Notes: generated from the sequence alone by a model not told the origin. Shown: positions 16,393 to 32,000, counted from the stretch's first letter. The stretch: 32,000 nt of DNA from Promethearchaeota archaeon (GCA_048938295.1 JBHLMI010000021.1:14864-46863), one strand, 5' to 3'. Made by a program: numbers and translations.

Positions 16393-18780
16393 TCAGACGA
16401 GGTCTTCAGAGAGCGTGATTGGAATCGGAAGATTACAGGATGGACAGCGCCCCTCCCGTGTTAGTCGTACAGAAAGTGTACGTACACCTAATCGTTCGAT
16501 GAGGAGCGCGCCACAGTTCGGACATATGGTATTGGCCCCTTGATGCCCGGGAACATTACCTAAATAGACGTATTTGAGACCTGCACGCGATGAGAGTTCT
16601 GCAGCGGTTTCAAGTTTCTTAATGGAGGTGGGTGGGAGATTACTCATCTTGTAATGGGGATAAAACCGTAAGAGATGGAGTGGCGTATCTTCGCCGAGTT
16701 CCTTAACGATCCATTGGGCTAGTTTTTCCGCTTCTTTAGTGTCATCGCCGACATCGGATACGAGGAGGTTAGTGATTTCGATATGAATGTCTGCAGCCTT
16801 CATCGCTTTGAGCGAATCAAAAATAGGCTCTACTTTGGGAACATGACAATATGTTTTGTAAAAAGCAGGATTGGCATTACCCTTGAAATCAACAGTGGCC
16901 GCGTCAAGGTAAGGGGCAATGGTGTCAATGGCATCGGTGGTCATGTAACCGTTAGTGACAAAAGTATTGAACAGCCCCTTTGCGTGGGCTATCTTTGCGG
17001 TATCATAGGCGTATTCAAAGAAAATGGTCGGCTCCGTATATGTATAAGATATGCCTGTGCAGCCGGTTTCCAACGCATACTCAACAATTTTCTCAGGAGA
17101 CATTTTACGCCCTACAATATCACGCTCATGGCTAATTTGCCAATTTTGACAGTTTCCGACTCCAATGAAATTAGCAAGGTAAGAGTGTTCACCTTCCACT
17201 TCCATATTGTAGACCGGTCCAGAGTATTGTTTTTTGGTTATTGTTTTTACTGGAAGAAGCCAGAAATCCTTAGTGTTTCTAAAGGCAACTGCTTTATCAG
17301 GATCTGGGTTCTTCCTGGTTCCACCCATCAACTCTCTACCAAATGTGTTTGTATTTACTTTTACATAGTATATTGTAGATTGGTTGATCATTCTTCCTTC
17401 GATTTCTTTCTGTTCGGGAGGTTTCCATTCGTACCACCCCGGTAAATAACCAAGTTTGAGGAGAAGAAAGTAGATACCAATCGAAAGTTTTTTTGAAACA
17501 GTGTTTATCGCAATATTGTTACCTGTTTCAGTTCCATCCCCTTTTAGATAGGCTCTTAGAAATGATAATACGATGTTTTTCGATGATGAGTATACCAAAT
17601 CAGGTACTTTCTTGGTTTTTGCACTACTTCCACAGAGTTGCTTGAATAAAACGCCAAGAGAGCTTTTTGTGACTTCAACCGCTATTGTAGTCCTTCTTTT
17701 TATTACTGCGATTGTAGCATCAAATATTTTTTTGAGAAGAGTGGCTGTTCGTTCCACCAATGCTTTCTCTTCGTGTCCATAACTGAAACTCACCCGGAAC
17801 GAATTAGGGCGGTTTCTATCCTTAGAAACACATCCTTCTGCAACATAGTATCCCAGAAGCTCAGCCAGTTCTTCGTTCATGGACACGCAGGCAGGTATCC
17901 ATCCCTTCTCACTTCGGAACTTCAAATAGCCTTCATTTTCTATTACATCATTTGGATAATAGAATGTCTTTTCTGTTATTCCATCGCTGCTTAGTTCCTT
18001 CATCAGTTTCCTCAAATAAGTGGGATGCATACCAATGATTTTCCCGATTTCACGTGAACTCAGACCAGTCTCCCGGAATTTCATAATTTCCTTAAGCTTC
18101 TTCTCATCCGTTTTTCGTGATTTCTTTATCCTCGATTTCCTTTTTTCGAGTATGGGAGCAATTTCGATTATTTCTTCCTTAGTTTCATTCGAGATCAGTT
18201 TGGGAACTATCAGTAGATCTCCAACCTGAATATTCCCTGCCTTCTTCTTTGTGATACCGCCATTCCACACATAAATTTCGTGTTCAGGTGTACACTCTAG
18301 AGGAGGAATATAAGCAGCGTTGAGTTCTATTAGTTCTCCCTCGTAATTGTGACGAAAGACCTTGCGAATACTTCTCTTCTGACCCGTTGCACTATTTGTG
18401 TATGTATTCTGTACAATTCGGATATTTTCGTGATGAGTTTTATCGGCTCTAGTGAACAATTCTCCAATCTTTTGGGGAATTCCATTACTAATTATCGTGG
18501 TTTCAGGATGGAAGCAAAAGTCACAGCGAAAATTGCAGCCGACGGTGGCTACAGACATGGCTAGTGCGCCTGGATGAAAGTGCCAGAGCGGCTTCTTTTC
18601 GATGGGGTCGGGGTTAGCCGAACACGCTTTTCCATAGACTAGCGAATAAAGGATGCCTTTCTCGTTTTTCCGGACTTGGCAGTATCCCAGTTTTCCGTCT
18701 GCTATTGTGCATCGGCGGCTGCACAGATAGCAGCCGACCTTGTTGTCTTCGAGTTTATTGTATAGCATCGCTTCATGCAT
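16393..18780 (-). CDS. AmmeMemoRadiSam system radical SAM enzyme, intein-containing (about 340 aa after splicing)
   Basis: N-terminal CYLCSRRC...GYCQVR and DPIEKKPLWHF. GCNFRCDF|CQNWQIS is restored after intein removal. YTYTEPTIFFEY, VTNG and C-terminal CPNC...CPSC follow. Confidence 0.92.
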   Translation of the reverse strand: MHEAMLYNKLEDNKVGCYLCSRRCTIADGKLGYCQVRKNEKGILYSLVYGKACSANPDPIEKKPLWHFHPGALAMSVATVGCNFRCDFCFHPETTIISNGIPQKIGELFTRADKTHHENIRIVQNTYTNSATGQKRSIRKVFRHNYEGELIELNAAYIPPLECTPEHEIYVWNGGITKKKAGNIQVGDLLIVPKLISNETKEEIIEIAPILEKRKSRIKKSRKTDEKKLKEIMKFRETGLSSREIGKIIGMHPTYLRKLMKELSSDGITEKTFYYPNDVIENEGYLKFRSEKGWIPACVSMNEELAELLGYYVAEGCVSKDRNRPNSFRVSFSYGHEEKALVERTATLLKKIFDATIAVIKRRTTIAVEVTKSSLGVLFKQLCGSSAKTKKVPDLVYSSSKNIVLSFLRAYLKGDGTETGNNIAINTVSKKLSIGIYFLLLKLGYLPGWYEWKPPEQKEIEGRMINQSTIYYVKVNTNTFGRELMGGTRKNPDPDKAVAFRNTKDFWLLPVKTITKKQYSGPVYNMEVEGEHSYLANFIGVGNCQNWQISHERDIVGRKMSPEKIVEYALETGCTGISYTYTEPTIFFEYAYDTAKIAHAKGLFNTFVTNGYMTTDAIDTIAPYLDAATVDFKGNANPAFYKTYCHVPKVEPIFDSLKAMKAADIHIEITNLLVSDVGDDTKEAEKLAQWIVKELGEDTPLHLLRFYPHYKMSNLPPTSIKKLETAAELSSRAGLKYVYLGNVPGHQGANTICPNCGALLIERLGVRTLSVRLTREGRCPSCNLPIPITLSEDLV
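17152..18516 (-). mobile_element. Intein (455 aa) with LAGLIDADG homing endonuclease
   Basis: Begins CFHPET and ends GVGN with C at +1. Blocks: B CTPEH, C LLGYYVAEG, E FLRAYLKGDG, F YSGPVYNMEV. Visibly more AT-rich than the exteins. Confidence 0.92.
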
Positions 18781-29629: not shown

Positions 29630-30081
29630 GCCACATTCAACAAGGATTGCTTGACGTGCTCTCACTAGCTTTAGTCAATATGAACACGTTGTTGTTTACG
29701 CCTTAATCTGTAGAAGAGATTAATTCCAGGGCAAATAGATTATTCGAGGAAGAAGACACAAACAGGATTCCGCGCCTTCTACTACATGGTCACACAGATT
29801 CTAGATTTCCTCAAGGGAAGTCTTAGTGAATTGAAAAACCGTCTTCTTCTATCATGAATCGATTCACCTCTCCAAGAATGTGAAAGACTCTACTAACAAA
29901 AAGTCTTGCTGAAAAAGAAAGTGGTGGTCGTATACCCCAAGGACAATATCGCTCCAGAACCAGTGCATATAGCTCCTTTCGAAACTAACACACTTAGGCG
30001 GTACGTGGCGGCCCGCTCAACACCTCGCCGAAGCTCGATGCGTACACGGCCGCTCGTTCAAACCGGTCTTCTACCGGAGCC

Positions 30082-30149
30082 TTCGTCCACGGTTCACCGT
30101 TCTAGTCGCCTAGCCCAGTGTGGACTACTCATCCAATAACCATGGAGTG
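30082..30149 (-). other. Enlarged helix 98 / ES39-like expansion segment in 23S rRNA
   Basis: About 68 nt at the position of the short H98. Sense-strand pairings: GUCCAC/GUGGAC enclosing hairpins CUAG-GCGA-CUAG and ACGG-UGAA-CCGU. Confidence 0.65.
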
Positions 30150-30169
30150 GGTGACTCGTCTCAGGACCC

Positions 30170-30200
<31 letters not shown>

Positions 30201-30326
30201 GGGCACAGCTTGGCTGCCCGGCGATGCCCCATCGGACAACCGGTACACCATAGGCTGCGATCCGCCGTTCCTCTCGTACCGAGCGGACCTTCCCCTCAAT
30301 CACCCAACGCACCCAAAAGAGAGAAT

Positions 30327-30369
<43 letters not shown>

Positions 30370-30484
30370 TTAACAGGCGTACAGCCTTACCCTTGGGAGC
30401 TAATGCACCCCCAGGATAGGAAGAGCCGACATCGAGGAAGCAAGCCGCGGGGTCGATATGGACTCTTGCCCGCGACGACTCTGT

Positions 30485-31149
30485 TTAGGGTCCCAGGTCG
30501 GTGTTACTTGGTGAGGTATTGTTGTAATCGTTCGCGCTTCTCCGGGTGAGTTACCCCAGAAACTCGGTGGAGGAAGCGTGTGAGATTCTCGCGTCCTGTT
30601 ATGAACAATTGCCATACGGTTCTGTTGGGTGGCTTGTAATAGCCACAGTGAATTTTGTGGTGTTCGAGGATGTCGCCTGCAATTCGAAGCTTCTGGATGC
30701 TTTCATTGTAGATGCTGAATTGTGGTTGTCCTTCACTGTTTTGAGTGGCAGATCCTTCAGCGTCTGCAAGTCCTCGTAACCATGCCATTTGTAGTGTTGG
30801 TTTCCACATCCGAATGTCTTCGGGATGTTCATGGATTATTTGGATCTGTGATACTAGTTGTTTGTCCCACACCTGAATACGATGTTCAGGTCGGGTCTGA
30901 CGTGGTTTTACTTGGACTTCCTTATCTGGAAGCACATGTTCGAGTGCAGGCTTGATGATTTCGGTTAGCCATCGTTCCGATTTGGATTCGATGTCAAAGA
31001 CATATCCTTCTTTGCCACCCCGCCCGAGACGGGCGTCTTCGGATGCGCCTGCGAGATAGGCGATGGTATCATTGAGAACCATTGTATTCCAGAACTATCG
31101 TAGGCAATTGAGTATTTATTCGTCTCACTGTTCTCGTCCGGCCTGAGAA
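30485..31149 (-). mobile_element. Archaeal bulge-helix-bulge-type 23S rRNA intron (665 nt) between A2450 and A2451
   Basis: Sense 5' junction GGGG-UA^U-UCUCAGG and 3' junction CCUGGGA-CCCU-AA^A-CAG give a 4-bp helix, two 3-nt bulges and a 7-bp intron stem. Cleavage after the second bulge nucleotide restores GGGGUAACAG. Confidence 0.88.
30504..31082 (-). CDS. Intron-encoded double-motif LAGLIDADG homing endonuclease (192 aa)
   Basis: Motif 1 AYLAGASEDA and motif 2 AWLRGLADAEGS. It lies wholly inside the intron, on the same strand as the rRNA. Confidence 0.88.
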   Translation of the reverse strand: MVLNDTIAYLAGASEDARLGRGGKEGYVFDIESKSERWLTEIIKPALEHVLPDKEVQVKPRQTRPEHRIQVWDKQLVSQIQIIHEHPEDIRMWKPTLQMAWLRGLADAEGSATQNSEGQPQFSIYNESIQKLRIAGDILEHHKIHCGYYKPPNRTVWQLFITGRENLTRFLHRVSGVTHPEKRERLQQYLTK

Positions 31150-31663
31150 TACCCCTGGGGTAATTTTTCTGACGTGATCGACCCTCATCGGTAGGGTTCG
31201 ATCGTTCGCTAGGCCCTGCTTTCGCACCAGCGCTCGTTGCTTTTCGGAGCACTGTTAAGCCAGCTTTTACCCTTGCGCGCTACACGCGGTTTCTGTCCGC
31301 GTTGAGCTGACCTTTGGGCGCCCATGATATCTTTTCGTGGGCGTGCCGCCCCAGCCAAACTGCCCACCTGCTGGTGTTATGCACCGTTTGGTGCATTAAG
31401 AGTTGCAAACACTGAAGGCTGGTGTTCCATTGGCGACTCCACCACCCCCGCAAGGGTGGCTTCGACGTCTCCCAGCTACGCTCTGCATCAATGCCCGTAA
31501 CCCAGCAACAGGCTGCAGTAAAACTCCACAGGGTCTTCTCTTCCCTTTGGGTGTCCCTGGACTGTTCGCCAGGAGGTGGGTTCACCGGGCCGCAGGCGGG
31601 GACAGTGGGGACCTCATTGATCCATTCATGCGCGTCGGTACTTATCCGACAAGGCATTTGGCT

Positions 31664-31963
31664 CAGTTCTGTTACTTTCTTGAAAGCGAAGTGCCTTCAA
31701 TACTGACCTCGAATTCGAGGCGGGCATGCATTTCTGCACGCCTCCAATAGTCGCCTATTGGCTCGGACTATATCTTACTTCATTGCTGAAGTTCTGGCGT
31801 ATAGTCTCTGAGGATGTCTCTCCCATGGGAGAGATCTTTCCTGCTGATTGTCTCCACTTGTGTATTTTTAGGGGTCATTCCTCTGTCACCAGAGGAGTAT
31901 CCTAACACAAGATACGCGAGAGGTTCCAGCATATAGCCAGATTTTACTAAGGCAACTCTGTTC
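31664..31963 (-). ncRNA. Group I self-splicing intron (300 nt, no ORF) after U1931 of 23S rRNA
   Basis: Sense strand: 5' exon ends ...UAAGGU and pairs with IGS GCCUUAG (U.G at the splice site). Core elements are P AUGCUGGAA, Q AAUCAGCAGG, R UCAGAGACUAUA and S AAGAUAUAGUCC, with P3 UCUGGC/GCCAGA and terminal omega-G. Removal restores AAGGU|AGCCAAAUGCC. Confidence 0.95.
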
Positions 31964-32000
31964 ACCTTAAGAGAGTCATAGTTACTCCCGTCGTTTAACA

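Follow-up and report, generated by a model that had tools for sequence, protein, structure and literature searches.

The window analysed here is a 32,000-nt stretch of DNA (G000:C20:14864-46863) that reaches the end of contig C20 of the MAG. When the minus strand of the window was aligned with the Rfam archaeal LSU model, it was found to carry the 3' third of an archaeal 23S rRNA gene, with two large insertions. Since base 32000 of the window is also the final base of the contig, the gene is truncated at its 5' end by the assembly, and the contig end lies 37 nt upstream of the first insertion, a group I intron. The 5' two thirds of the 23S were sought in the rest of the MAG, and none was recovered beyond the C20 fragment. 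The features of the locus are listed below in the order of transcription, after the gene itself.

29982-32000, minus strand: 3' third of an archaeal 23S rRNA gene (RF02540, 779.9 bits, E 1e-244, model positions 1998-2987)
31964-32000, minus strand: exon 1 fragment, helix 69 through U1931, ending ...CUCUUAAGGU (from the sequence; the intronless alleles L010 and L005 run straight from it into the next exon)
31664-31963, minus strand: group I intron without ORF, L1931, 300 nt (RF00028, 61.2 bits, E 1.5e-14)
31150-31663, minus strand: middle exon, 514 nt, E. coli 1932-2450 (LSU alignment and sequence; 97% identical to congener G014)
31138-31155, minus strand: 5' half of the BHB motif, with GGGG (helix H), bulge UA/U and UCUCAGGCCGG (helix h')
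30485-31149, minus strand: BHB intron, 665 nt, 2450/2451, in the peptidyl-transferase loop (GGGG:CCCU helix, 3-nt bulges UAU and AAA, 11-position intron helix)
30504-31082, minus strand: ORF of the BHB intron, 192 aa, double-motif LAGLIDADG homing endonuclease, I-DmoI-like (PF14528, E 3e-9; profile against I-DmoI, E 1e-6)
30484-30501, minus strand: 3' half of the BHB motif, with CCGACCUGGGA (helix h'), CCCU (helix H) and bulge AA/A
29982-30484, minus strand: exon 3, A2451 to the 23S 3' end (LSU alignment and sequence; downstream CLC-channel gene syntenic in congener G008)

A first-pass annotation of this DNA had proposed a group I intron at L1931 and a BHB-type intron with a homing endonuclease at 2450/2451, the two being 514 nt apart. 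All three points were reproduced: RF00028 matches the former with 61.2 bits and its site lies after U1931, the latter has a conserved motif and a LAGLIDADG ORF, and the exon between them (31663-31150) is exactly 514 nt long. The predicted junctions AAGGU/AGCC and GGGGUA/ACAG also proved to exist without interruption, the first in L010 and L005 and the second in L019 and L020.

The host had been taken for an Asgard-type archaeon, and the genome bears this out. A profilin was detected at 28.3 bits, above the Pfam cut-off (0 of 14 control genomes match), together with actin matches of 212 and 182 bits, and the host is therefore an Asgard archaeon. The best actin matches are located at contig ends, G000:C9:53228-53734 and C18:11406-11822, one covering the N-terminal half and the other the C-terminal half of the protein; the assembly seems to have split the gene. 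The GTDB class of the host comprises 19 genomes in one family with two genera. Since the 3' flank of the 23S gene, with its CLC channel gene, is syntenic in G008, the rRNA fragment belongs to this chromosome region. As a separate observation on the rRNA itself, all the Asgard 23S examined (window 31150-31160 and 30481-30484; L005, L006, L019 and L020) read CAGGGGUAACAG, the Rfam archaeal consensus being CGGGGAUAACAG. The Asgard reading places a G where E. coli has the conserved A2448, which adjoins the peptidyl-transferase A2451.

Considering the locus as a whole, the single recovered 23S gene is very probably interrupted by two unrelated mobile introns that would be removed by separate routes. 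The relatives differ in how they carry the two elements. At the 2450 site, an intron was present in all the genomes of the genus with data (G000, G006, G008 and G014). At the L1931 site, the group I intron was present in G000 and in contig C17 of G014, and absent in contig C60 of G014 and in G015. The C60 fragment (L009) has a ~700-nt insert at L1923 (~440-1147), ending ...AAGATATAGTCC...GGTTG/CTTAAGGT and giving a weak RF00028 match of 25 bits, and the same contig has a 145-nt BHB mini-intron at 2450. The two 23S fragments of G014, C17 and C60, point to two operons or two strains.

It could be argued that the window is an assembly chimera, in which the conserved 514-nt exon had served to fuse a 5' part with the group I intron to a 3' part with the HEG-bearing BHB intron from another strain or operon, so that no single gene would have this pair. 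A single short-read contig links the two introns, and it breaks within the 23S close to the group I intron (37 nt before it); every rRNA contig found in the relatives is truncated at its ends. In addition, the two overlapping 23S fragments of the G014 bin differ in their introns (L1931 in C17; the L1923 insert, and none at L1931, in C60), which amounts to heterogeneity within the genus. However, the contig is continuous from the chromosomal genes through both introns, and its 3' flank keeps the gene order of G008. Moreover, because 4 of 4 genus genomes with data have the 2450 intron, any allele bearing the group I intron almost certainly also has the BHB intron. The C60 contig of G014, furthermore, independently pairs a group I-like insert with a BHB mini-intron. 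We therefore regard a chimera as unlikely.

A survey of Asgard genomes with Intron_gpI revealed group I introns in the 23S of three further Asgard genomes. Matches over the cut-off were obtained in 5 of the 151 Asgard genomes sampled, at least 4 of them in 23S genes; group I introns are thus present in the phylum and uncommon. Strong RF00028 matches (114-115 bits) were found for G060 and G147 in archaeal 23S genes, at sites other than L1931. The 115-bit group I intron of G147 (L019, G147:C242, 1487-1908) occupies an unusual site near E. coli 1780, and a ~360-nt AT-rich insertion is situated in the helix 89 region of the same sequence (2573-2935). An Intron_gpI match of 58.9 bits was also seen at 1540-1869 of L022 (G140:C312), which is a 2-kb contig from an Asgard bin; no rRNA was matched in the surrounding sequence. 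The small-subunit gene of the host has insertions as well. Its 16S fragment L002 (G000:C48, 1-1446) has a 617-nt insert after GGAUUCAAC, at about Rfam SSU position 916, containing a 182-aa ORF with no Pfam match. The same fragment has ~63 nt extra in helix 44 and ~90 nt of inserts in helix 45 before the true GGAUCACCUCC end.

The L1931 intron matched Rfam Intron_gpI (RF00028) over model positions 1-253 with 61.2 bits (E 1.5e-14), the gathering score being 50, and this match was also recovered in the whole-genome search. The 5' exon ends ...CUCUUAAGGU (longer, ...GGGAGUAACUAUGACUCUCUUAAGGU) and the 3' exon starts AGCCAAAUGCC (longer, AGCCAAAUGCCUUGUCGG). The site was numbered by counting from the H69 loop, which places it after E. 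coli U1931, between H69 and H71. In L010 (G015, the sister genus) and in L005 the L1931 site is empty and reads CTCTTAAGGT/AGCCAAATGCC; because these intronless alleles read straight through, the splice points of the intron are fixed. P1, as read from the sequence, consists of 7 bp formed by exon UUAAGGU and intron bases 11-17 (GCCUUAG), in which the final U of the 5' exon makes a U.G pair at the splice site. The terminal (omega) base of the intron, at 31664, is G.

The minimum-free-energy fold of the intron contains P3 (UCUGGC:GCCAGA), P4, P5/P5a-b, P6/6a, P8, P9 capped by a GCGA loop, and another two hairpins on the 3' side (P9.x); P3, P4, P5, P6, P8 and P9 are also present in the cmscan alignment. 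P7 (GACUA:UAGUC) was found by eye inside the conserved J8/7-P7 block AAGAUAUAGUCC, whereas P10 is weak, with 3 bp found by eye. The sole ORF inside the intron is 61 aa long and has no Pfam match. A 322-nt copy of the intron is located at L1931 in G014 (locus L013, C17), with 70 bits and 91% identity. When the two were compared, compensatory changes were observed in P5b and P9.1, a covariation that is thin, with two sequences only. The subtype is assumed to be IB4, because every LSU/1931 intron in Table 1 of PMC6125680 is IB4. Removal of this intron via a BHB motif was considered and rejected, as the duplex search at its junctions (-13.2 kcal/mol) returned nothing resembling a BHB, with no 4-bp helix between 3-nt bulges.

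The Rfam score of 61 bits is moderate, and together with the weak 3-bp P10 it could indicate a dead group I relic, which would no longer self-splice and would rely on host proteins or on the BHB pathway. Nevertheless, no core helix is disrupted, the J8/7-P7 block AAGAUAUAGUCC is preserved, the changes relative to the G014 copy are compensatory, and the junctions lack the geometry that the BHB pathway would use. A relic of this kind is quite unlikely in our judgement, and we favour a group I intron that may still excise itself.

The second intron is preceded by exon sequence ending ...CCCCAGGGGUA (longer, ...UUACCCCAGGGGUA), and the exon resumes with ACAGAGUCGUCG (longer, ACAGAGUCGUCGCGGGC). 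Because of a repeated A, its position can also be written as 2449/2450 at the DNA level. The same BHB architecture was found in 8 homologous introns, namely that of the window, those of the congeners L009, L011 and L012, and those of the other-lineage MAGs L004-L007, including Candidatus Thorarchaeota SMTZ1-45. Each of the eight (8/8) has, at the exon-intron borders, a pair of 3-nt bulges on opposite strands and a 4-bp helix that does not vary. In every sequence 10 of the 11 positions of helix h' are paired, and three columns of this helix are compensatory across the set (A-U to U-A, G-C to A-U, and C-G to U-A). Furthermore, the ORF lies in a loop that is closed by another covarying stem (GUGAG:CUCAC, GGCGAG:CUCGCC and variants).

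For this intron, the folds and the duplex search gave no convincing outer helix h between the exons, and the motif is therefore of the relaxed kind, made up of helix H, both bulges and h'. In isolated minimum-free-energy folds, the GGGG pairs locally with an upstream CCCC instead, and RNAduplex returned an alternative register, AGGG:CCCU, with a 4-nt bulge. The junction itself can be compared with natural sequences. Cuts after the second base of each bulge predict the product CCCCAGGGGUA-ACAGAGU, and this is the uninterrupted 23S of L020 (Asgard genome G060). The 23S of L019 (G147) equals the predicted product bar one upstream exon base (CCUC for CCCC), and in both L019 and L020 the empty 2450 site reads CAGGGGTAACAGAGT. 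The candidate reading of this intron as a degenerate group I intron was rejected: no RF00028 match was obtained up to E 1 (a search of 29800-32000 gave the L1931 intron alone), the 5' exon and the intron both end in A, and the BHB motif is conserved and covarying.

The 192-aa protein encoded within the BHB intron matched Pfam LAGLIDADG_3 (PF14528) at E 3e-9. A single-sequence PDB search gave a marginal match to I-DmoI (E 0.097), and a profile built from five orthologues matched I-DmoI at E 1e-6 over residues 21-169. Both motifs are recognisable, IAYLAGASED with D16 and WLRGLADAEGS with D107 and E109, and these three residues are invariant across the five orthologues. Orthologues 61-64% identical to the protein are situated at the same 23S site in four other MAGs, including that of Thorarchaeota SMTZ1-45. 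An exact-protein look-up of the 192-aa sequence found no encoding contig on record. In three congeners, the 2450 site is occupied by ORF-less introns of 145-148 nt, which agree with the long intron over their first 28 nt and over ~47 nt at the 3' end, a stretch that takes in the final 28 coding bases of the ORF. These shared ends imply that the long and the ORF-less introns are one element at different stages of endonuclease gain or loss. Elsewhere in the window (16393-18780, minus strand), an intein that has a LAGLIDADG_3 domain of its own interrupts a radical SAM protein of 795 aa, and it is the second homing-endonuclease-type element in the window.

The enzymes that a BHB intron calls for are encoded by the host. 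Two EndA paralogues of 186 and 196 aa were found, 29% identical to each other and each with PF01974 and PF02778; the putative alpha subunit is encoded at G000:C1:9137-9697 and the putative beta subunit at G000:C19:2886-3476. Both have the N-terminal and the catalytic-type domains; when the two are aligned pairwise, the catalytic His is missing from the second. RtcB was matched with 567 bits. The two paralogues, one of them without the catalytic His, suggest that EndA is probably an alpha-beta heterotetramer. The alpha-beta heterotetramer type is described as accepting relaxed BHB motifs (PMC5829648).

From the sequence we infer a scheme for splicing, for the order of splicing and for homing. 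Twenty sequencing runs, six of them metatranscriptomes, were found to contain 0.26-0.83 of the sampled words, and these shares carry no weight for the scheme. The L1931 intron would excise itself by the usual two transesterifications, in which an exogenous G would attack after the U.G pair of P1 and the terminal G of the intron would then dock for exon ligation. The host splicing endonuclease would cut the 2450 intron at its BHB motif, and RtcB would ligate the exons and probably circularise the intron. The I-DmoI-like LAGLIDADG protein may drive DNA-level homing into empty sites, and its candidate target is the intronless CAGGGGTAACAGAGT site, in a duplex carrying CCCCAGGGGTAACAGAGTCG. The first-pass annotation had expected two unrelated splicing systems to act at two functional centres of this rRNA; that mechanistic reading appears right on the sequence evidence, the EndA paralogues and RtcB being encoded. 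It is highly improbable that the BHB intron is cut out with its exons left unligated, giving a fragmented 23S, or that the gene is a decaying unused copy: although the MAG yielded a partial 23S only, strong conservation is seen in the exons (780 bits; 97% identity with the congener) and, together with covariation, in the BHB geometry, RtcB is present, the predicted ligation product is a natural intronless sequence, and we know of no precedent for a 23S break at A2450/A2451 in the catalytic loop.

The two introns can be set beside several known systems. The 23S intron of Desulfurococcus mobilis, a crenarchaeote, is removed at a BHB motif and encodes the monomeric two-motif LAGLIDADG endonuclease I-DmoI, of about 190 aa; it is located in domain IV, not in the peptidyl-transferase loop. 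Both it and the 2450 intron are archaeal 23S BHB introns with a LAGLIDADG protein, and the proteins are connected by the profile match at E 1e-6. However, the sequence similarity between the ORF and I-DmoI is remote, the hosts differ (Asgard and crenarchaeote), and so do the rRNA sites. Thermotoga carries 23S group I introns at L1931, in a bacterial host, for which self-splicing has been demonstrated. The L1931 intron of the window shares this prokaryotic 23S site, but its host is archaeal and not bacterial.

For the 2450 intron, the closest parallel in position comes from eukaryotes. L2449 is a group I site in the nuclear rDNA of myxomycetes and fungi (PMC3511172, PMC1299323), at practically the same rRNA position. 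As L2449 is an established group I site, the 2450 intron lies at a classical intron hot spot. Nevertheless, the eukaryotic L2449 introns are self-splicing ribozymes, whereas a group I core is absent from the 2450 intron.

Group I introns in archaeal rRNA were described by Nawrocki, Jones and Eddy in 2018 (NAR 46:7970, PMC6125680), who reported 39 of them, with LSU/1931 as the commonest site and all the LSU/1931 introns assigned to IB4. That work also describes cases in which one host gene carries both group I and BHB introns (Figure 1). The hosts were DPANN phyla, Thaumarchaeota, Aigarchaeota and Euryarchaeota; Table 1 has no Asgard entry, and a Lokiarchaeota-binned contig was discarded as bacterial. 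The L1931 intron of the window resembles these introns in its LSU/1931 site, its archaeal rRNA gene, its size (theirs are ~250-800 nt, some of them ORF-less) and its coexistence with a BHB intron. It differs from them in its Asgard host, and its IB4 subtype is an assumption. A literature search for group I introns in Asgard rRNA found no report, and what Wu et al. 2022 (PMC8813620) mention is limited to a homing-endonuclease homologue, carried by a mobile element next to the 16S gene. The first-pass annotation had been aware of no description of the combination in an Asgard-type archaeon. This holds for the Asgard host, which appears to be unreported, but not for the general pairing, which was published in 2018 (PMC6125680). 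Because the same pairing was known from other archaeal phyla, the novelty is limited to the Asgard host; this is a known combination in a new host group, with no new mechanism.

The published range of archaeal group I introns, and of rRNA genes that mix group I and BHB introns, is thereby extended to the Asgard archaea, which among prokaryotes are the nearest to eukaryotes. The life cycle of homing endonucleases is neatly illustrated by the genus, in which one BHB intron at the peptidyl-transferase centre exists in HEG-bearing and in ORF-less copies. Such introns explain the poor assembly of rRNA genes in these MAGs, and rRNA-based surveys and primers can miss them. More speculatively, the A2450/A2451 intron may be fixed in the genus (4 of 4 genomes with data, three of them with the 145-148-nt ORF-less form), in which case the catalytic centre of every ribosome would depend on the tRNA-splicing endonuclease and RtcB, with a polymorphic group I intron 514 nt upstream, and this might be the first documented Asgard lineage with both intron types in one rRNA. 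If this is true, the genus would provide a natural system for testing the descent of BHB introns from group I introns at hot spots that both types use, L2449 among them.
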